Shown here one piece after another: positions 1-10,603 of a stretch of DNA of 64,000 bases. Position numbers and translations under genes: made by a program. Position 1 is the stretch's first letter. Each line of letters opens with the position of its first letter. The notes under the pieces are model-generated. The model saw nothing but the letters and a program-made list of their open reading frames with translations. It did not search any database and had not been told where the DNA came from. The DNA comes from Escherichia coli. Lineage in GTDB: Bacteria > Pseudomonadota > Gammaproteobacteria > Enterobacterales > Enterobacteriaceae. The stretch lies in the NCBI RefSeq assembly GCF_041886205.1, contig NZ_CP169029.1; one strand, given 5' to 3'.

Positions 1-1000
1 CGACAAAGGGTTCGCGCACGCCATTCCAGTCAAATGAACTGTTGAGGATCGCTTCGGCAGTGTCACCATTGGGATATTGATCGGTCCAGTGGCGTTGTCC
101 CTGGAAGCCCGCAGCGATGGCGTTGTAGCCAAGTGATTCTTCCACGCGACCAATATCGGCCAGTTTGCTGTTGCCTTGCATCATGTCGCGGATACACATC
201 GCCATCAGTAAACTTTCGCGCAGAACTGCGCGGCTTTGCTCGGCATTGCGTTGATACTGTTTGTTATTTTCATCTTCGCCGTAGCGGAAGTTTTTATCAG
301 CCCAGGCCAGCGCCATTTCCAGTTCGGCTTCGTCGTAAATCTTCTGATCGATACGGCGACGCAGTTCGGTCATATCCACCGCCTGGACTTTCATTCCCAG
401 CCAGGATTCAAAGAAGTTGTGATCAACGATGGAACCAGCGATACCCATCGAAACGCCGCCCAGCGACAGATAGCTTTTACCTTTCATGCTGGCGACTGCC
501 AAACCGGCGCGGGCAAAGCGCAGCAGTTTTTCTTCAACATCGGCTGGAATCGATGTGTCATCGGCATCCTGAACGTCATGACCGTAAATGGAGAATGCCG
601 GGATGCCTTTCTGGCTGTGAGCTGCCAGAGCCGCTGCCAGGTAAACAGCGCCGGGACGTTCAGTGCCGTTAAAGCCCCAAATGGCTTTCGGGCGGGTTGG
701 ATCCATGTCGATGGTTTCACTGCCATAGCACCAGCAAGGCGTTACCGTAATGGTGAGGCCTACATTCTGGCTGCTGAATTTTTCTTCGCAAGCAGCGGCT
801 TCAGCCATACCCGCGATACAGGTATCGGAAATGACACACTCGACGGCAGCTCCGCAGGCATGGCGCAGTTTCTCGGTCAGCAGTGTGGCCGTGGCTTTCG
901 CCATATTCATTGTTTGTTCTTCAAGCGACTCACGAACACCCATGCGACGACCGTCAATAACCGGGCGGATACCAATTTTCGGTAACGTATTAATTTTCAT
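1..1000 (-). CDS. fucI: L-fucose isomerase, 5' part only (gene continues beyond window start)
   Basis: Reverse-complement translation from ATG at 1000 gives [33 protein letters not shown]..., matching FucI; GAGG RBS upstream; no in-frame stop before window edge. Confidence 0.85.
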
Positions 1001-1082
1001 CAGGATTCCTCATCTCGCTTTATTGGCGCTCTGCTAAGGCGGAGAAAGGAAACCACCGAAGCAGTAGTATTGGTCATTATTT

Positions 1083-1098
1083 GCTAACTCGAGTTAGC
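1083..1098. promoter_or_regulatory. Perfect 16-bp palindrome GCTAACTCGAGTTAGC, candidate operator (copy 1)
   Basis: Self-complementary 16-mer in the fucI / ABC-transporter divergent intergenic region; identical copy at 1322-1337. Confidence 0.35.
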
Positions 1099-1321
1099 TT
1101 AGGTTTGTAGGCTTTTTATGCACAACTTTTTTGTTGTTGAAATGTGAGGGGCTTCACGAGAAGTGGTTAAAATACGATCTCTGTCAAATTATTATTTAGC
1201 GGGAGAAAAATAAATTTTACGTATAATCATATGGTTATTAGATTTTAATGGTTATGCATCACAGTTTTAACTCAAATGATTTGGCTAATTTGTATACCTA
1301 AAATAGCTTTAAAAGGCGATC

Positions 1322-1337
1322 GCTAACTCGAGTTAGC
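1322..1337. promoter_or_regulatory. Perfect 16-bp palindrome GCTAACTCGAGTTAGC, candidate operator (copy 2)
   Basis: Identical to 1083-1098; about 130 bp upstream of the ABC ATPase start. Confidence 0.35.
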
Positions 1338-1469
1338 AAAATGCGAAGAATAGATTGATGCGATGAATATTTATTCAAAGGTTATTCGTATCACAGTGGA
1401 GATGGCTTTAGTAGCGACGTTTATGCCGTACTTCACATTTTCAGTTTCTGATTATTGAGGAAAGCTGCA

Positions 1470-2969
1470 ATGTCCGAAACATTTTTGCAAATGAAGCATA
1501 TCACCAAACGCTTTCCTGGAGTGTTGGCGCTTAATGACGTGCAATTTTCCCTACGCCGGGGCGAGGTTCATGCATTATTAGGTGAAAATGGTGCAGGAAA
1601 ATCTACCTTAATGAAAATTTTGTCGGGGGTTTATCAACCTGATGAAGGCGAAATAATTTTTGAAGATAAACCAGTCTCATTTTCTGATCCGTTAAGTGCG
1701 CAAAACGTAGGTATTACTATTATTCACCAGGAATTTAATTTATTTCCCGAGCTTACAGTAGAAGAAAATATTTTTATCGGCAGGGAGTTTTGTAAAAAAA
1801 ATCGCTGGCGTCTGGATGAAAAACAGCAACGCCAGGCGACGATTGAAATTTTGCAAAAATTAAATTTGGCGATCAAACCAGATACTCTGGTTGCCGACCT
1901 TACGGTAGCTCAGCAGCAGATGGTAGAAATTGCCAAGGCCATTTCAGTTAACGCCAGGATTCTCATTATGGATGAACCTACTGCGGCGTTAACAGAAACT
2001 GAAATTGAAAGCTTATTTCGCGTCACCCGGTTATTGAAAGAGCAGGGGACCGGCATTGTTTATATCTCCCACCGTCTGGAAGAGTTGGCGCTAATTGCCG
2101 ACCGTGCGACTGTAATGCGTGATGGTCAGTACATCAGCACGGTGGATTATGAGTGCGTAAAAATCAGCGATCTGATTGCCATGATGGTTGGTCGCGATTT
2201 AGGGAATATCTATCCCCGCCGCGAGGCCTTGCAGCAGCGGATTCCGGTTCTGGAGGTAAACGGACTGACGCGCAAAGGCGTCCTGAACGATATTAATTTT
2301 ACGCTTTATCGTGGCGAGATCCTCGGCTTTGCCGGACTGATGGGCGCGGGGCGTACTGAACTTGCGCGTGCGATTTTTGGTGCGGATTCTATTGACAGCG
2401 GAACGCTAAAATTAAATGGTAAGGAAACCGTTATTAAAGATATTTCGGATGCTATTCAGCAGGGAATTAGTTACCTGACGGAAGACCGCAAAAAAGAAGG
2501 GCTGGCGCTGAATTTATCTGTTGAACGAAATATTATGTTAGGAAACTACCCTGAATATTCCGATCGTTTTGGGAATGTCGATTCGCGTCGTTGCCAACAA
2601 ACCAGTGAGGAACAGGTAAAAGCGTTAAGGATTAAAACGCCAAATCTTGAACAGGCGGCATTAAATCTAAGTGGAGGAAACCAGCAGAAAATTATAATTG
2701 CACGTTGGGTGTGTAAAGATACTGATATTTTAATCTTCGATGAACCCACTCGCGGCATTGATGTTGGCGCCAAACTGGAAATCTATGAGTTAATGAATCG
2801 CCTGGTGGCAAAAGGGAAATCAATCATCATGATCTCCTCTGAATTGCCTGAGGTGTTAGGAATGTGCGACCGTATTTTAGTGATGCGCAGTGGTCGAATT
2901 ACCGGCGAACTTAGCGCAAAAGAAGCGACACAAGAAAAAATTATGCAATACGCGACGTTAGAGGATTAA
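1470..2969 (+). CDS. Sugar ABC transporter ATP-binding protein, two fused ABC domains (RbsA/XylG-like)
   Basis: ORF with Walker A GENGAGKST and second ABC domain; ATG 1470 with GAGG RBS (ORF track starts at TTG 1455). Confidence 0.85.
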   Translation: MSETFLQMKHITKRFPGVLALNDVQFSLRRGEVHALLGENGAGKSTLMKILSGVYQPDEGEIIFEDKPVSFSDPLSAQNVGITIIHQEFNLFPELTVEENIFIGREFCKKNRWRLDEKQQRQATIEILQKLNLAIKPDTLVADLTVAQQQMVEIAKAISVNARILIMDEPTAALTETEIESLFRVTRLLKEQGTGIVYISHRLEELALIADRATVMRDGQYISTVDYECVKISDLIAMMVGRDLGNIYPRREALQQRIPVLEVNGLTRKGVLNDINFTLYRGEILGFAGLMGAGRTELARAIFGADSIDSGTLKLNGKETVIKDISDAIQQGISYLTEDRKKEGLALNLSVERNIMLGNYPEYSDRFGNVDSRRCQQTSEEQVKALRIKTPNLEQAALNLSGGNQQKIIIARWVCKDTDILIFDEPTRGIDVGAKLEIYELMNRLVAKGKSIIMISSELPEVLGMCDRILVMRSGRITGELSAKEATQEKIMQYATLED

Positions 2970-2972
2970 ATT

Positions 2973-3956
2973 ATGACTATCTCTGTAACCTCTCCAGACA
3001 GTAATAATAAGAAAATAAAGATAAATAAAGAACTTTTGATGCGTCTTGCGCCTCTTTTTAGCTTAATTATATTAGTGCTGTTTTTTAGTTTCAGCTCTCC
3101 CTTTTTCTTTAATACCGAAAATATCATGACGATTGCTCTGCAAACGTCGGTTATCGGCATTATGGCCATTGGGGTAACTTTCGTCATTATTACCGCGGGC
3201 ATCGATCTTTCATTGGGCTCCGTGGTGGCTTTTTCTGGTGTCGCCGTGGGGATTTGCGCCACACTGGGCCTGCCGCTGCCAGTGTGTATTATTGCCGGTG
3301 TTTTAGCCGGTGGAATGTGCGGCTATGTGAATGGTTTGTTGGTCACTAAAATGACCATTCCACCATTTATCGCTACCTTGGGCCTGATGATGTCCGTCAG
3401 AGGTATCAATATGGTGATGACCGACGGGCGCGCCATCTATTTTGCCGATTACCCGATGTTCAAAACGCTCGCTCAGGGACGCTTATTTGATGTGCTGCCT
3501 TATCCTGTTTTCTACCTTGTCATTGTAGCGCTTGTCGGCGCTTACATCCTGAAGAAAACCGTCATTGGTCGCTATGTCTATGCCGTAGGCAGTAATGAAG
3601 TTGCTGCTCATCTTTCTGGTATTAAAGTTCAGCGCGTGAAAATTTTCGTCTATGCCTTCTGTGGATTATTAACGGGGATTGCAGGTGTCATTCTGGCATC
3701 TCGTCTCAACTCCGGACAACCGACGGTAGGTGTGGGTTATGAACTGGAAGCTATTGCCGCGGTAGTGATTGGCGGAACCAGCTTAATGGGCGGTATTGGC
3801 ACTATTGGCGGCACAATCATTGGCGCTTTCATTATGAGTGTACTGAAAAATGGCCTCAATTTAATGGGCGTCTCCCAGTTCTGGCAAATGGTCGCGATGG
3901 GCGTCGTTGTGGTCGCTGCCGTTTACCTCGATACATTACGCAAAAAGATTCGTTGA
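2973..3956 (+). CDS. Sugar ABC transporter permease (RbsC-like)
   Basis: 327-aa hydrophobic multi-TM protein; ATG 4 nt after ATPase stop; GAGGA RBS. Confidence 0.85.
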   Translation: MTISVTSPDSNNKKIKINKELLMRLAPLFSLIILVLFFSFSSPFFFNTENIMTIALQTSVIGIMAIGVTFVIITAGIDLSLGSVVAFSGVAVGICATLGLPLPVCIIAGVLAGGMCGYVNGLLVTKMTIPPFIATLGLMMSVRGINMVMTDGRAIYFADYPMFKTLAQGRLFDVLPYPVFYLVIVALVGAYILKKTVIGRYVYAVGSNEVAAHLSGIKVQRVKIFVYAFCGLLTGIAGVILASRLNSGQPTVGVGYELEAIAAVVIGGTSLMGGIGTIGGTIIGAFIMSVLKNGLNLMGVSQFWQMVAMGVVVVAAVYLDTLRKKIR

Positions 3957-4029
3957 CTTAGGCTCCCTGTTTTATCGGGAAACAACTGCCCTGACGTTAA
4001 GGGTGATTCACTCAGAACGGAGTACAACA

Positions 4030-4980
4030 ATGAAAACCAGGCATTTTATCTATGCGTTATCTCTGCTGGCTTGCGTAAGTTCCAGCGCACTGGCGAAGGA
4101 TTTAAATCTTCCGGTTGTTAGTAAAGGTTTCCAACATGAATTCTGGCAAACCGTAAAAATGGGGACTGAAGCTGCGGCTAAAGAGTTGGGGGATAAAACC
4201 AGCTATGTTGGCCCGGCTGATGAAACGCAAATAGCCGAGCAAATTCAGTTAGTCGAAAATGCGATGGCGCAGAAACCGAATGGCTTGCTTCTGGCAGCCC
4301 TCGACGCGAATGCGCTCGCCCCACTGGTAGAAACGGCAAATTCACGCGGTATCAAAGTGGTGACCTTTGATTCAGGCATCAATTCAGACATTCCGGTGAG
4401 TTTTGTCGCCACCAATAACCGTAAAGCAGGTGCTCAGGCAGCTGATGCCTTAGCCTCGCAGGTAAATAATAAAGGGAAAGTTGGGATTATCGCGCACGTT
4501 GCAGGAACATCTTCCGCTATTGAACGCTCGGAAGGCTTCATGGAGCGTATGAAAGAAAAATATCCTGACATTAAAGTCTTACCCGTTCAGTACAGCGATG
4601 GTGACCCGCAAAAAGCGATGGATAAAACTATCGATATGATTCAGGCCAATCCCGATCTTGCTGGGATCTATGGCACCAATGAAGGTTCAACGCTCGGGGT
4701 GGCGAATGCCATTGATAGCCAGAATCTGAAAGGTAAGGTGAAGGTCATTGGTTTTGATAGTACGGAAGCGATTATTAACTTCCTGAAGAACGGCGTCATT
4801 CAGGGCTTTGTTGTTCAGGATGCATACCAGATTGGCTATCAAGGGATCAAAACGTTGAACGCGGCCCTTTCGGGGCAAGCCGTTGAAAAAGAGATCGATA
4901 TTCCCGTGAAATTTGTTAATGCCGAGAATATTAACACGCCAGAAATCGACAAACTCCTGCACCCATTCGGTAAGAAATAA
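4030..4980 (+). CDS. Periplasmic sugar-binding protein of ABC transporter (RbsB-like)
   Basis: Signal peptide MKTRHFIYALSLLACVSSSALA then PBP-like domain; ATG 4030 with GGAG RBS (ORF track start 3907 is an upstream extension). Confidence 0.8.
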   Translation: MKTRHFIYALSLLACVSSSALAKDLNLPVVSKGFQHEFWQTVKMGTEAAAKELGDKTSYVGPADETQIAEQIQLVENAMAQKPNGLLLAALDANALAPLVETANSRGIKVVTFDSGINSDIPVSFVATNNRKAGAQAADALASQVNNKGKVGIIAHVAGTSSAIERSEGFMERMKEKYPDIKVLPVQYSDGDPQKAMDKTIDMIQANPDLAGIYGTNEGSTLGVANAIDSQNLKGKVKVIGFDSTEAIINFLKNGVIQGFVVQDAYQIGYQGIKTLNAALSGQAVEKEIDIPVKFVNAENINTPEIDKLLHPFGKK

Positions 4981-5032
4981 AAAATTGGGGATGAATTTTC
5001 ATCCCCGTTATCTCCAGCGTCAGGGAGGCTTT

Positions 5033-6613
5033 ATGCACAACGGTTATTTTCTCGGTGTCGATGTCGGATCGGCCAGTGTCAGGGCAGGCGTTTACAGTGC
5101 CAGTGGCCACAGGCTGGCATTCGCTACTGCGCCCGTCTCCCAGTTTCGCCCTGGCGGCGAGCGTGTCGAACAGTCTTCGGCAGAGATCTGGCAACAAGTT
5201 TGTAAAACGGTGAAAGAGGCGACAGCTTTGGCAGGCATCCCCATTTCCGCAATTCGCTCACTGGGTTTTGACGCTACCTGCTCGCTGGTTGTTCTTGATG
5301 AACAAGGCCAGGGTTTAGCGGTTTCGTCCGGTGGATCTGCGAATCACGACATTATTATGTGGATGGATCATCGTGCAACTGTCGAGACGGCGCAGATTAA
5401 CGCAATGAAGGATCCCGCATTGCGCTACGTTGGCGGCGAAGTGAGCGTCGAGATGGAGTTACCAAAGTTACGTTGGTTGAAGACGCATCTACCGCAAACC
5501 TGGCAGGCCGCTCATCGCTTTTTCGATCTGGCGGATTTTCTGGTCTGGAAAGCAACAGGGCGAGACGTCGCGGGATTATGCACGCTAACGTGTAAATGGA
5601 ATTATCTAGCTCATGAGCAACGCTTTAGCCATAGCTTACTGGAATCGATAGACCTGACCGATATGCTTGAAAGAATTCCTGCCAACATTCTTCCGCCTGG
5701 CGCTGCCGTGGGAACGTTAACCGCCACAGCTGCTGAAGAGTTAGGATTAACGACTAATGTTATCGTGGCCAGTGGCTTGATTGATGCCCATGCCGGTGGC
5801 GTGGCGCTGGCTGGCGCTCACCCATCAGGAACGCTGGCATTGATAAGCGGAACGTCGAACTGCCATATGCTGTGTAGTGAAAAAGAGATATTCACCCCTG
5901 GCGTCTGGGGGCCATACTGGTCGGCCATGTTGCCAAATTACTGGCTAACCGAAGGCGGGCAAAGCGCCGCAGGGGCGCTGGTGGAGTGGACGCTTCAGGA
6001 GTCAGGGGCAAGCGCAAATCTTTTTCACAAGGCGCAGCAACGCGGATGTCATCCGATTCAACTGATTAATGAATGGGTAGCAGCCCTTGAAGCTAACGAG
6101 TCAGAACCCACACGAAATTTACATGTGCTTGCCGATCATCACGGCAACCGTTCGCCACGAGCGCGGCCCGATGCCAGAGGCAGTGTTTATGGCTTAACAC
6201 TGGAGCGTGGTGAAAATCAGCTCGCGCGACTTTATCTTGCGACTTTACAGGCAATAGCCTTTGGCACCAGACATATTATTGAAACTCTGCGGGAAAATGG
6301 GCATACCATTACCCGATTAACATTATGTGGTGGTGCAACGCACAACCCTTTATGGCTACGCGAATATGCAGACGTGACAGGTTGCGATATCCACCTGATG
6401 CAAGAAGAAGATGCCGTTACGTTGGGCGCAGCAATTAGCGGCGCTGTTGCCAGCGGAGCATGGGGGGATTTTACATCTGCGTGTAAAGCAATGGTTGAAG
6501 CCGGAGAGATTATTCAGGTAAATCCACAACGCCGTGAATTTTTAGAGCGTAAATACCGGGTTTACCTGACGCTTTGGGAGCAACAACAGGCGGTTAACCA
6601 ACTGATGCAATAA
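5033..6613 (+). CDS. FGGY-family carbohydrate kinase (pentulose/ribulokinase-like)
   Basis: N-terminal YFLGVDVGSASVRAGV glycine-rich kinase motif and C-terminal LCGGATHNPLW motif typical of FGGY kinases; ATG 5033 with GGGAGG RBS. Confidence 0.8.
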   Translation: MHNGYFLGVDVGSASVRAGVYSASGHRLAFATAPVSQFRPGGERVEQSSAEIWQQVCKTVKEATALAGIPISAIRSLGFDATCSLVVLDEQGQGLAVSSGGSANHDIIMWMDHRATVETAQINAMKDPALRYVGGEVSVEMELPKLRWLKTHLPQTWQAAHRFFDLADFLVWKATGRDVAGLCTLTCKWNYLAHEQRFSHSLLESIDLTDMLERIPANILPPGAAVGTLTATAAEELGLTTNVIVASGLIDAHAGGVALAGAHPSGTLALISGTSNCHMLCSEKEIFTPGVWGPYWSAMLPNYWLTEGGQSAAGALVEWTLQESGASANLFHKAQQRGCHPIQLINEWVAALEANESEPTRNLHVLADHHGNRSPRARPDARGSVYGLTLERGENQLARLYLATLQAIAFGTRHIIETLRENGHTITRLTLCGGATHNPLWLREYADVTGCDIHLMQEEDAVTLGAAISGAVASGAWGDFTSACKAMVEAGEIIQVNPQRREFLERKYRVYLTLWEQQQAVNQLMQ

Positions 6614-6677
6614 GACAAAAGTTGAAAATACTTTTATGATTGTGATTTGACGTCTGGATGTTAACTGGGAAATACCT

Positions 6678-7676
6678 ATGGCTAAAACAGTAGAGCAGAT
6701 AGCCAGCGACCTGAATTTATCGGTTACGACCGTGCGACTGGTGCTAAATGGAAAAGCGGAACAATATCGAATCAGCGTCAAAACCCAAACGCGTATCAAT
6801 GAATATGTTGAACGCTATGGTTATATCATTAATCATTCCGCTCGCAGCCTTAAGCTTAACAAAACTGATACATTAGGGTTGATTGTTCCCAACATATCCA
6901 ACGTCTTTTTTGCTACGCTGGCAGAAAAACTCGAACAACGCTGTCGACGTTCCGGATATCAACTTACAATCAGTTGCACTTATGATGATGTTGACTATGA
7001 AAATAAATTGACGAAAGCATTTATCGCACGAAATGTAGATGGTCTTTTTATTGTTCCTTCGACGCTGGAAAATCAGCAGCATCATTTACGCAAAATTCGT
7101 AAGCCCATGGTTTTACTCGATCGTGATTTTAAATATACCGATAACGCATTGGTAGAGAGTAATAATATTTCTGGCGGAGAAAAGCTGACGCAAAATATTC
7201 TTGAGGCCGGGCAGACTCCAGTATGGTTTTTGCTGGGAGATGCCGGTTTGCCGAGTATCAGCGATCGTCTGACAGGTTATTTGAATGCGTTGGCAAAAAA
7301 AGGGATTACCCATCGCGATTGGGTGCGGGAAGGTCCGGTAAATACTCCGGAAGGCGGCTATGTCATTATGGAAAAACTCATTGAAGAGCAGGGATGTCCG
7401 CAGGCATTTATCGCCTCGTCTTTGCCTGTGCTTGAAGGCGCTGTCCGCGCGATTCGCGACCGTCTTGGCGCTGTACCGCCAGAAATCAATATTGGCACTT
7501 TCGATGAACATCCTATGCTGGGATTTCTCGCCAACAATGTCTGGTCAATGCAGCAGGATGAAAATGCCTGGGCAGAAAAAGCGTTCGAAATGATGTTAAG
7601 CGCGATCGAAGAAAGACCAGTCAAAAAAACAGTTAAAGTAGAAATGAAATTAATTAAGCGCATAAGAAAAAAATAA
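6678..7676 (+). CDS. LacI-family transcriptional regulator
   Basis: N-terminal HTH (TVEQIASDLNLSVTTVRLVLNG) plus periplasmic-binding-like sugar domain; Lys-rich C-terminal tail. Confidence 0.85.
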   Translation: MAKTVEQIASDLNLSVTTVRLVLNGKAEQYRISVKTQTRINEYVERYGYIINHSARSLKLNKTDTLGLIVPNISNVFFATLAEKLEQRCRRSGYQLTISCTYDDVDYENKLTKAFIARNVDGLFIVPSTLENQQHHLRKIRKPMVLLDRDFKYTDNALVESNNISGGEKLTQNILEAGQTPVWFLLGDAGLPSISDRLTGYLNALAKKGITHRDWVREGPVNTPEGGYVIMEKLIEEQGCPQAFIASSLPVLEGAVRAIRDRLGAVPPEINIGTFDEHPMLGFLANNVWSMQQDENAWAEKAFEMMLSAIEERPVKKTVKVEMKLIKRIRKK

Positions 7677-7808
7677 TAATCGCCAAAAGATATCAGGCTA
7701 CTGAACAATGATATTCAGTGGCCTCCCCTTACTAAAAATAACCCCGTCTTCATTTGCGGTGCTGTTTTACGCAACAAGGCGAGCTGAAACTGTATCTGGA
7801 GAATAGAA

Positions 7809-8456
7809 ATGGAAAGAACACGTTTATCCCGTGAAATAATTGAAACCTGTCTGGAAATGACGCGCCTTGGGTTAAATCAGGGGACAGCGGGGAATGTCAG
7901 CACACGTTTTGAAAACGGCATGTTGATTACTCCCAGCGGTATTCCTTATGAAAGAATGACGGAGAATATGATTGTCTATGTTGATGGCAACGGCAAATAC
8001 GAAGAAGGTAAGATTCCTTCCAGCGAGTGGCGTTTCCATATGGCAGCCTATCAAAGCAGACCGGATGCCAACGCGGTTGTTCACAATCATGCCGTTCATT
8101 GCACGGCAGTTTCCATTCTTAACCGACCGATCCCCGCTATTCACTACATGATTGCGGCGGCGGGCGGTAATTCTATTCCTTGCGCGCCTTATGCGACCTT
8201 TGGAACACGTGAACTTTCTGAACATGTTGCGCTGGCTCTCAAAAATCGTAAGGCAACTTTGTTACAACATCATGGGCTTATCGCTTGTGAGGTGAATCTG
8301 GAAAAAGCGTTATGGCTGGCGCATGAAGTTGAAGTGCTGGCGCAACTTTACCTGACGACCCTGGCGATTACGGACCCGGTGCCAGTGCTGAGCGATGAAG
8401 AGATTGCCGTAGTGCTGGAGAAATTCAAAACCTATGGGTTACGGATTGAAGAGTAA
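7809..8456 (+). CDS. fucA: L-fuculose-1-phosphate aldolase, N-terminal third divergent from the K-12 form
   Basis: 215-aa class II aldolase; C-terminal two-thirds matches K-12 FucA as I recall it, first ~68 residues carry many substitutions. Confidence 0.9.
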   Translation: MERTRLSREIIETCLEMTRLGLNQGTAGNVSTRFENGMLITPSGIPYERMTENMIVYVDGNGKYEEGKIPSSEWRFHMAAYQSRPDANAVVHNHAVHCTAVSILNRPIPAIHYMIAAAGGNSIPCAPYATFGTRELSEHVALALKNRKATLLQHHGLIACEVNLEKALWLAHEVEVLAQLYLTTLAITDPVPVLSDEEIAVVLEKFKTYGLRIEE

Positions 8457-8483: not shown

Positions 8484-9632
8484 ATGGCTAACAGAATGAT
8501 TCTGAACGAAACGGCATGGTTTGGTCGGGGTGCTGTTGGGGCTTTAACCGATGAGGTGAAACGCCGTGGTTATCAGAAGGCGCTGATCGTCACCGATAAA
8601 ACGCTGGTGCAATGCGGCGTGGTGGCGAAAGTGACCGATAAGATGGATGCGGCAGGGCTGGCATGGGCGATTTACGACGGCGTAGTGCCCAACCCAACAA
8701 TTACTGTCGTCAAAGAAGGGCTCGGTGTATTCCAGAATAGCGGCGCGGATTACCTGATTGCTATTGGTGGTGGTTCTCCACAGGATACTTGTAAAGCGAT
8801 TGGTATTATCAGCAACAACCCGGAATTTGCCGATGTGCGTAGCCTGGAAGGACTTTCCCCGACCAATAAACCCAGTGTACCGATTCTGGCAATTCCCACC
8901 ACAGCAGGCACTGCGGCAGAAGTGACCATTAACTACGTGATCACTGACGAAGAAAAACGGCGCAAGTTTGTTTGCGTTGATCCGCATGATATCCCGCAGG
9001 TGGCGTTTATTGACGCTGACATGATGGATGGTATGCCTCCAGCGCTGAAAGCTGCGACGGGTGTCGATGCGCTCACTCATGCTATTGAGGGGTATATTAC
9101 CCGTGGCGCGTGGGCGCTAACCGATGCGCTGCACATTAAAGCGATTGAAATCATTGCTGGGGCGCTGCGAGGATCGGTTGCTGGTGATAAGGATGCCGGA
9201 GAAGAAATGGCGCTCGGGCAGTATGTTGCGGGTATGGGCTTCTCGAATGTTGGCTTAGGGTTGGTGCATGGTATGGCGCATCCACTGGGCGCGTTTTACA
9301 ACACTCCACACGGTGTTGCGAACGCCATCCTGTTACCGCATGTCATGCGCTATAACGCTGACTTTACCGGTGAGAAGTACCGCGATATCGCGCGCGTTAT
9401 GGGCGTGAAAGTGGAAGGTATGAGCCTGGAAGAGGCGCGTAATGCCGCTGTTGAAGCGGTGTTTGCTCTCAACCGTGATGTCGGTATTCCGCCACATTTG
9501 CGTGATGTTGGGGTACGCAAGGAAGACATTCCGGCACTGGCGCAGGCGGCACTGGATGATGTTTGTACCGGTGGCAACCCGCGTGAAGCAACGCTTGAGG
9601 ATATTGTAGAGCTTTACCATACCGCCTGGTAA
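8484..9632 (+). CDS. fucO: Lactaldehyde reductase (L-1,2-propanediol oxidoreductase)
   Basis: MANRMILNETAWFGRGAVGAL... iron-containing alcohol dehydrogenase; second ATG chosen to give the 382-aa form. Confidence 0.93.
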   Translation: MANRMILNETAWFGRGAVGALTDEVKRRGYQKALIVTDKTLVQCGVVAKVTDKMDAAGLAWAIYDGVVPNPTITVVKEGLGVFQNSGADYLIAIGGGSPQDTCKAIGIISNNPEFADVRSLEGLSPTNKPSVPILAIPTTAGTAAEVTINYVITDEEKRRKFVCVDPHDIPQVAFIDADMMDGMPPALKAATGVDALTHAIEGYITRGAWALTDALHIKAIEIIAGALRGSVAGDKDAGEEMALGQYVAGMGFSNVGLGLVHGMAHPLGAFYNTPHGVANAILLPHVMRYNADFTGEKYRDIARVMGVKVEGMSLEEARNAAVEAVFALNRDVGIPPHLRDVGVRKEDIPALAQAALDDVCTGGNPREATLEDIVELYHTAW

Positions 9633-9644
9633 ATGCGCTGATGT

Positions 9645-9690
9645 GATAATGCCGGATACGACGCTAGCCGCGTCTTATCCGGCATATAAG
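9645..9690. repeat. REP-type palindromic element between convergent fucO and xni
   Basis: GCCGGATACGACGCTAGCCGCGTCTTATCCGGC, characteristic REP sequence. Confidence 0.6.
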
Positions 9691-9736
9691 TGCATTAAAT
9701 TCAATGTGTTGATAATCGTTTGCATACGGCACGTCG

Positions 9737-10603
<867 letters not shown>

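Follow-up and report, generated by a model that had tools for sequence, protein, structure and literature searches.

A sharp sequence switch within fucA

The fucA gene of the E. coli strain under study is a mosaic relative to that of strain K-12, and its divergent first 213–219 nt likely represent the right end of an old alternative fuc haplotype, not the scar of a recent insertion. In the window analyzed here, that is, the whole stretch of 64,000 nt, fucA is an intact 215-codon open reading frame on the plus strand, the translation of which matches the peptide quoted in an earlier reading of this DNA (hereafter the sequence-only reading). The gene was compared in register with K-12 fucA (positions 8980–9627 of locus L001), and no indels were found. 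The 5′ part (7809–8027, 219 nt) contains 59 nucleotide differences relative to K-12 (27%, 73.1% identity) against only 4 in the 3′ part (8028–8456, 429 nt, 99.1% identity), a contrast with a p value of 7.5e-26 by Fisher's exact test. The maximum chi-square statistic reaches 111.7 for a break after gene nt 219 (window position 8027), a value equalled in none of 1000 permutations, the highest of which gave 20.2. The differences from K-12 are significantly clustered, with one best breakpoint. The longest run identical to K-12 within the 5′ block is 17 nt, and a run of 99 identical nt (8028–8126) lies just past the boundary.

The sequence-only reading had proposed that divergence is confined to the 5′ end of fucA, and the alignment with K-12 bears this out by ruling out uniform divergence along the gene. 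Its estimate of about 15 substitutions in the first 68 or so residues was close to our count of 18 in residues 4–69. Identity to K-12 FucA from about residue 70 onward nearly holds, with a single further difference at position 107 (Pro here, Ser in K-12). The differing codons of the 5′ block comprise 27 synonymous and 19 non-synonymous changes, and 34 of the 73 third positions differ. The placement of the right-hand junction inside fucA rather than in an intergenic region was likewise correct, and the left junction also falls within a gene, at codons 3–5 of fucI.

The two parts of fucA differ in their nearest relative, which is a contig named Escherichia marmotae for the 5′ block (95.4% identity, versus 73% for K-12) and all E. 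coli for the 3′ part. Identity in the 3′ part ranges from 97.9 to 100% among E. coli of both fuc types, and from 89 to 94.6% to other Escherichia of any type. In the site table, the E. coli types show their last fixed difference at position 8021 (fucA nt 213); positions 8027 and 8045 are polymorphic in both types. The features of the locus are collected in Table 1.

Table 1. Features of the fucI–fucA region in window coordinates, with the observations on which each entry rests.
Feature	Position	Strand	Remarks
fucI, 5′ part (L-fucose isomerase)	1–1000	−	Start codon 998–1000; gene extends past the window edge; 97.4% identity to K-12 over 1–1012
Left haplotype boundary in fucI	986–993	−	fucI nt 8–15; six differences from K-12
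Divergent intergenic region between fucI and the ABC operon	1001–1469	.	AT-rich (GC 0.355–0.37); occupies the place of K-12 fucP and the fucPIK promoter region
Sugar ABC transporter ATP-binding protein	1470–2969	+	RbsA/XylG-like, two ABC domains; NCBIfam
ABC transporter permease	2973–3956	+	RbsC-like; NCBIfam and BE2-5 annotation
Periplasmic sugar-binding protein	4030–4980	+	AlsB/RbsB/RhaS-like; NCBIfam and BE2-5 annotation
FGGY-family pentulose kinase (DarK)	5033–6613	+	TIGR01315, 531 bits (cutoff 408.7)
LacI-family regulator	6678–7676	+	Closest to the fructose-responsive/Cra subfamily, below cutoff
Stem-loop, 11 bp	7695–7724	+	Directly after the regulator gene, within the 132-nt spacer before fucA
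fucA	7809–8456	+	Intact, 215 codons
Type-specific fucA 5′ block	7809–8021	+	Codons 1–71; linked to the ABC/DarK module; 73% identity to K-12
fucA boundary interval	8022–8045	+	Site table; maximum chi-square break at 8027
Shared fucA 3′ part	8028–8456	+	Codons 74–215
fucO (lactaldehyde reductase)	8484–9632	+	Shared backbone; 98.9% identity to K-12

Organization of the segment between fucI and fucA

Homology of the window to K-12 covers positions 1–1012 (fucI, minus strand, 97.4%) and position 7830 onward (97.8% over 8.2 kb). In the comparison with the K-12 region, none was detectable between the fucI match and fucA, that is, upstream of 7809, including the divergent intergenic region at 1001–1469. 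The alternative segment measures about 7.0 kb (986–8021) versus about 2.1 kb in K-12, and both of its ends lie in genes common to the two forms. Five plus-strand genes stand where K-12 has fucP and a fucP/fucA control region of 546 nt. Over much of its length the module has a GC content of 0.36–0.48, below that of its flanks.

Apart from codons 3–5, fucI belongs to the shared E. coli backbone, and it is annotated as fucI in strain BE2-5. Its product begins with MKINTLP here and with MKKISLP in K-12, and the two E. coli types are identical downstream of nt 15. MKINTLP is found in all Escherichia loci of the ABC type, MKKISLP in K-12, M1/5, a contig named E. albertii and Salmonella, and MNKISLP in O157. 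A promoter scan of 1001–1469 returned just two weak promoter-like matches, not above chance.

The ATPase (WP_000004944.1 in the annotations of BE2-5 and BL21(DE3)) has RbsA as its best NCBIfam match with 589 bits, which is under the cutoff, so that no substrate was assigned. The FGGY kinase reaches only 57 bits against the FucK model; a D-ribulokinase unrelated to FucK thus sits between fucI and fucA. Judging from its sequence, this kinase is DarK, the D-ribulokinase of the D-arabinose pathway of E. coli B (ECD_02649 in BL21(DE3)). The BE2-5 kinase is 100% identical to the window protein by tblastn and carries the same accession as that of BL21(DE3), WP_000551482.1.

The site between fucI and fucA is occupied by one of two haplotypes. 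The "fucP type", found in K-12 and 93% of E. coli, consists of fucP and a divergent promoter region controlled by FucR and CRP, and the "ABC/DarK type", found in the window, in E. coli B/BL21 and in 7% of the species, of the ABC sugar transporter, DarK and the LacI-type regulator. These haplotypes are about 27% apart in fucA nt 1–213, also differ in fucI nt 8–15, and are non-homologous in between.

Both haplotypes occur in other species

The regulator protein was used as a query among species-representative genomes, yielding 58 loci; this search missed the E. marmotae-named and Escherichia sp. E4742 genomes, the contigs of which were retrieved through FucA protein matches. Each non-coli species is represented by one or two contigs, three of them identified only by the protein name given in the source. 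In the relatives, fucR-U-K-I is followed by the divergently oriented three ABC genes, the kinase gene in some cases, the regulator gene, fucA and, in some cases, fucO. The ABC gene order was seen in E. whittamii, many Citrobacter, Pluralibacter, Lelliottia, Enterobacter hormaechei, Atlantibacter, Buttiauxella and others. The E. marmotae-named contig, E4742 and E. whittamii, the FucA proteins of which all have the window-type N-terminus, carry the ABC/DarK architecture in the same place on the chromosome, and the ABC architecture also occupies this place in Citrobacter, Enterobacter, Atlantibacter and Buttiauxella. The fucP type was found in Salmonella and in a contig whose FucP is identical to a protein listed by NCBI under E. 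albertii. E. coli is the one species in which both haplotypes were seen (383 versus about 5040 genomes); a FucP named Citrobacter matched at 92%, which may point to dimorphism within that genus too.

Table 2. Nucleotide identity within each haplotype across species.
Comparison	Cassette genes	fucA 5′ block	Flanks
Window vs E. marmotae-named contig	module genes 90–94%	95.4%	92.5–95%
Window vs E4742	module genes 89–97%	90.4%	89–95%
Window vs E. whittamii	module genes 88–91%	90.0%	86–94%
Window vs Citrobacter	module genes 71–82%	78–80%	78–84%
K-12 vs E. albertii-named contig	fucP 94.3%	94.5%	91–96%
K-12 vs Salmonella	fucP 80.0%	79.5%	78–83%

Within each type, identities are given in Table 2; between types, the fucA 5′ block shows 67–74% identity in every comparison, while the 3′ part tracks species. 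The fucA alleles group by type in the linked block and by species outside it, which is the pattern of a trans-species polymorphism. We counted diagnostic sites without E. coli, since its inclusion would be circular for the 3′ part of fucA. In this set, 33 sites separate the E. albertii-named contig and Salmonella from the E. marmotae-named contig, E4742, E. whittamii and two Citrobacter, and all but one, at nt 600, lie within fucA nt 7–205 (32/33). Past fucA nt 205, 19 sites distinguish the E. albertii-named contig from the three Escherichia of the ABC type. The right edge of the dimorphism thus lies at about nt 205–219 of fucA, and the left edge at the start of fucI. Because the boundary is in the same place between species and between genera, it is not an E. 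coli event, and the dimorphism would be older than the split of Escherichia, Salmonella and Citrobacter. In the ABC-type Enterobacter, Atlantibacter and Buttiauxella, the FucA N-terminus is nearer to the K-12 form (9–15 versus 16–22 residue differences), and linkage between block and cassette is therefore limited to Escherichia, Citrobacter and Salmonella.

The 5′ blocks of the two types are slightly closer to each other within Escherichia (73–74%) than across genera (67–68.5%). This is not expected from strictly independent descent, and exchange within the block or differences in rate may therefore contribute. A counterpoint to persistence of the two forms is that an old introgression between Escherichia lineages would predict the same identity pattern.

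Whether a given fucA looks mosaic depends on the outgroup. The window gene is uniform against the E. marmotae-named contig, E4742 and E. whittamii (90–95% in both parts), and K-12 fucA falls to 68–72% against the same relatives in the 5′ part while retaining 89–94% in the 3′ part. The description of the window fucA as a mosaic gene by the sequence-only reading is accordingly valid with respect to K-12, E. albertii and Salmonella, but not with respect to its ABC-type sister species, against which K-12 is the odd one; the label follows the reference chosen. These comparisons lend some weight to a history of opposite polarity, in which the ABC/DarK haplotype would be ancestral in Escherichia, and a fucP cassette together with 213 nt of foreign fucA would have been imported into the ancestry of E. 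coli and E. albertii and have risen to 93%, making K-12 fucA the true mosaic. Three of the four sampled non-coli Escherichia taxa and most Citrobacter are of the ABC type, as this would predict. We nevertheless consider it rather unlikely, since fucP and the fucA 5′ block of K-12 are no nearer to Salmonella (80%) than their flanks are, leaving no donor signal, and since the fucP type of the E. albertii-named contig shows species-level divergence. In addition, the K-12-type FucA N-terminus is closer to the wider enterobacterial consensus than the window type. A FucP protein search gave E. coli and Shigella at 97–100%, then a gap to Salmonella, Klebsiella and Raoultella at 91–93%, the nearest non-coli FucP proteins in this search being those of Salmonella and Klebsiella at 92–93%, which also argues against such an import; the search was clustered at 90%, which masks intermediate species, and the E. 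albertii-named FucP (98%) surfaced only through the cluster listing. No close donor for either cassette was found among the 58 regulator loci, in the FucP protein search or in the identities to relatives.

Distribution and age of the ABC/DarK haplotype in E. coli

A search for the regulator gene together with the spacer gave matches in 383 of 5426 complete E. coli genomes, BL21 among them. The 252-nt 5′ span of fucA matched 383 genomes at 95% identity or more, 5032 at 60–80% and 12 at 80–90%, and separate searches with each half of the block matched 385 and 384 genomes. Linkage between cassette and block in E. coli is essentially complete. The junction in fucA is common to 382 of the 383 module-bearing genomes, which fall into several sequence classes, and one genome has a different crossover. 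The three module classes sampled (window/BL21, YDC107 and ETEC-2265) encode an identical FucA protein. Their modules diverge by 0.8–1.35% over 6.8 kb versus 0.95–1.4% in the right flanks, and fucP-type strains diverge by 1.2–1.95% in fucP and the intergenic region. Since module divergence equals flank divergence, we conclude that the ABC/DarK haplotype is as old as E. coli diversity and not a recent import. The BS-04 genome was considered as an intermediate form and set aside: its fucI–fucA interval is 74–84% identical to both haplotypes with many gaps, which probably reflects an assembly problem.

This age bears directly on the scenario favored by the sequence-only reading, namely that the lineage of the present strain recently acquired a foreign module by insertion or substitution, and that the sealing crossover inside fucA left donor codons 1–70. 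Seen from K-12 alone, the pattern is exactly what such an event would produce, the GC content of the module is under that of its flanks over much of its length, and both junctions lie in genes common to the two haplotypes, as homologous replacement needs. It is nonetheless very improbable. The same junction is found in nearly all carriers across several sequence classes, the module has accumulated up to 1.35% divergence within E. coli, and the same architecture exists in sister species. Moreover, no donor closer than species level was found for the present module: the best candidates, E4742 and the E. marmotae-named contig, are 88–97% identical per gene, which is the divergence of the flanks. 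The claim that the module is an insertion in this strain, with fucA bearing its scar, is therefore not supported.

Rare recombinants and a possible barrier to exchange

Exchange between the two forms inside the fucA block does occur, but rarely: it was observed in one module carrier and at least one of the fucP-type genomes examined. In SCU-301, which has the ABC/DarK locus, fucA turns to the fucP type somewhere between nt 186 and nt 190 of the gene, and downstream of the switch it matches that of strain M1/5 at 99.8% identity. Conversely, 1919D62, which has the fucP locus, carries ABC-type fucA tracts at nt 54–87 and from nt 170 to the gene end, with 100% identity to the window over the 3′ part of the gene.

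Under the old-haplotype interpretation that we favor, homologous recombination would have made the two types indistinguishable within E. coli outside the haplotype edges. Inside the fucA block, exchange of the RecA type would be strongly hindered because perfect matches between the types do not exceed 17 nt there, and the block would remain linked to its cassette; crossovers would be resolved in the first long identical stretch, the 99 nt at 8028–8126. Such a barrier, combining the requirements of RecA with mismatch repair, could produce both the knife-edge boundary and the near-complete linkage. This argument draws on general knowledge of RecA-dependent recombination and of mismatch repair. 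That the 5′ end of fucA diverged in place at an accelerated rate and without recombination, for instance under selection after its upstream neighbor changed, would suit the packing of about 18–19 amino-acid replacements into 69 residues, but is barely conceivable in view of the synonymous codon differences (27) and differing third positions (34/73), the 90–95% identity of the block to other Escherichia species, the knife-edged transition and the existence of recombinant alleles.

Relationship to the dar cluster and to other polymorphic loci

The "inserted module" is, on the basis of sequence identity, the D-arabinose (dar) cluster of E. coli B, which was already known. The module of BL21(DE3) is 99.94% identical to the window over 6.8 kb, and BE2-5, the region of which is 100% identical to the window by tblastn, shares with BL21(DE3) the accessions of the ATPase, permease, binding protein and kinase, that is, four of the five module proteins. 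The E. coli B cluster and the present one are the same locus. The original study by Elsinghorst and Mortlock in 1994 reportedly described a 5.2-kb segment, the source of which was left undetermined. PMC12307932 cites that study (J Bacteriol 176:7223) as its reference 27 on this cluster. D-arabinose supports growth of BL21(DE3) but not of K-12 (PMC6150544), and the same article treats the ECD_02649 region of BL21(DE3). Both PMC12307932 and PMC6150544 speak of additional DNA, or an "insertion", at the fuc locus. In the accessible texts of these two articles, we found no mention of segment edges inside fucA or fucI or of the presence of the segment in other Escherichia species.

The same transporter swap has been described as "Variant 2" of the E. 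coli fucose operon, in which fucP is exchanged for an ABC transporter (Saif et al. 2023, Microorganisms 11:1265, PMC10221146). Variant 2, exemplified by BL21, was reported in 50/1058 genomes and 7.5% of isolates (PMC10221146), compared with 7.1% here (383/5426). That study regards the transporter as a substitute for the fucose permease; fucA sequences were not compared, and the words "recombination" and "horizontal" are absent from it. Growth of BL21 on fucose resembled that of a K-12 fucP deletion mutant (PMC10221146). This resemblance fits a role of the transporter and kinase mainly in the use of D-arabinose/D-ribulose, not L-fucose.

Mosaic core genes beside polymorphic cassettes are familiar in E. 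coli from gnd, next to the O-antigen cluster, and from the mutS-rpoS region. As in fucA, a conserved gene in these regions adjoins a non-homologous segment and carries a divergent block that ends abruptly, and the cause is likewise linkage to the cassette combined with homologous recombination further out. The fucA boundary is in this respect an ordinary kind of feature and no new kind of system. Unlike those loci, the fuc locus has only two forms, both shared with other species and genera, and the fucA block is very short (213 nt) with a nearly fixed boundary. It offers a clean example of a short core-gene block that, across species, stays bound to the cassette beside it, the remainder of the gene being homogenized. 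Mention of the exact in-gene boundaries, of the presence across Escherichia, Salmonella and Citrobacter or of the rare alternative crossovers was not found in the searchable literature.

A broader view of the locus, which we put forward only tentatively, is that it may be a two-allele structural polymorphism, opposing the FucP proton symporter to an ABC transporter with a D-ribulokinase, that would date from before the separation of Escherichia, Salmonella and Citrobacter and would since have been retained, or re-assorted time and again through homologous recombination. The 213-nt block would then be the fossil edge of the original replacement, and niche-dependent selection might maintain both forms, one for efficient L-fucose uptake and the other for the use of D-arabinose/D-ribulose.

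FucA function and control of fucAO

FucA matches the equivalog model TIGR01086 with 426.7 bits (cutoff 400.25) over residues 2–215 of 215, and NF005984 with 439 bits (cutoff 264). We take the zinc ligands to be H92, H94 and H155, the catalytic residues E73 and Y113, and the phosphate site N29, T43, G44, S71 and S72. The translation keeps E73, H92, H94, Y113, H155, N29, G44, S71 and S72, and position 43 has Ser for Thr, a conservative change within the divergent block; E73, H92, H94, Y113 and H155 lie at or past the boundary. BL21, which has the same allele class, grows on L-fucose (PMC10221146, PMC6150544). The retained residues, the family scores and this reported growth together indicate that the enzyme is most likely fully functional, with its function unaltered.

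In K-12, the PfucAO promoter with two FucR and two CRP sites lies within −270 to −1 of fucA (PMC11011485), and this region has no counterpart in the window. Promoter and terminator scans of the 132-nt spacer before fucA gave no match. No FucR consensus sites were found in 1001–1469 and 7677–7808, the pattern being very degenerate, as illustrated by 105 window-wide matches at up to 2 mismatches versus about 100 expected. Transcription of fucAO in the ABC/DarK haplotype is probably read through from the upstream ABC–DarK–regulator operon, controlled jointly with it, or otherwise controlled. E. coli B/BL21 and 7% of natural isolates carry a fucA allele with 18 N-terminal substitutions and are devoid of both fucP and the K-12 PfucAO promoter with its FucR/CRP sites. 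What is known from K-12 about fucAO regulation, fucose uptake and propanediol metabolism should not be transferred unchecked to B strains, and the same caution applies to the engineering of fucose or 2′-fucosyllactose metabolism in them.

The spacer before fucA also contains a stem-loop of −16.3 kcal/mol (z = −4.65). It was ruled out as a canonical terminator, a T-run being absent. A palindrome resembling a LacI-type operator, CTGAAN8TTCAG, has one exact copy at 7701–7718 and no second copy in the locus, and was taken as part of the hairpin rather than as an operator. The stem is kept in the E. marmotae-named contig, E4742, E. whittamii and Citrobacter despite changes on both arms.

Intergenic features of the fuc locus

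Directly downstream of the LacI-type regulator gene, the window carries a predicted stem-loop of −16.3 kcal/mol (z = −4.65). Its stem is retained despite changes in both arms in the contig named E. marmotae, in E4742, in E. whittamii and in two Citrobacter. The stem-loop lacks a T-run. Within it lies the palindrome CTGAACAATGATATTCAG, which might just as well serve as an operator.

A spacer of 104 nt separates fucO from xni in the window, BE2-5, YDC107, M1/5 and SCU-301; its counterpart in K-12, O157 and ETEC-2265 measures 54 nt, about 50 nt less. The length of this spacer varies independently of the fuc haplotype, be it the fucP type of K-12 or the ABC/DarK type of the window.

Coordinates of features in the window and in strain BS-04
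Feature	Location	Description
Stem-loop	window 7695-7724	11-bp stem, directly 3′ of the LacI-type regulator gene
fucO-xni spacer	window ~9633-9740	length polymorphism
BS-04 fucI-fucA interval	locus L061 6455-8655	only 2.2 kb long

Atypical loci and FucA proteins

The interval between fucI and fucA of strain BS-04 matches both haplotypes piecewise, at 74-84% identity and with numerous gaps; fucA is annotated there as a gene of 660 nt. Mis-assembly or a high error rate in this region, rather than a third fuc haplotype, probably accounts for the interval.

In strain CFS3292 (L067), which has a K-12-type locus, an IS1 element lies between fucP and fucA, and the 5′ ends of both genes are deleted together with the entire control region. 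One BL21(DE3) assembly (NZ_CP081489.1, L064) contains a large rearrangement with one end within fucA, which is broken off at ~440 nt (equivalent to window ~8248) and fused to a truncated ydfJ, followed by ydfI-rspR-ydfG-dcp.

At the protein level, clustering at 90% identity placed FucA (215 aa) and FucO (382 aa) in a single cluster (cluster 2) represented by FucO, and K-12 FucA and the window FucA were therefore reported as members of the same cluster. This joint cluster is a database artefact, and cluster sizes from this clustering should be read with it in mind. A FucA named as Plesiomonas (P0005) shares 91% identity with K-12 FucA and matches the E. coli sequence exactly over its C-terminal 35 residues. 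Such closeness is unexpected for so distant a genus and may reflect transfer.
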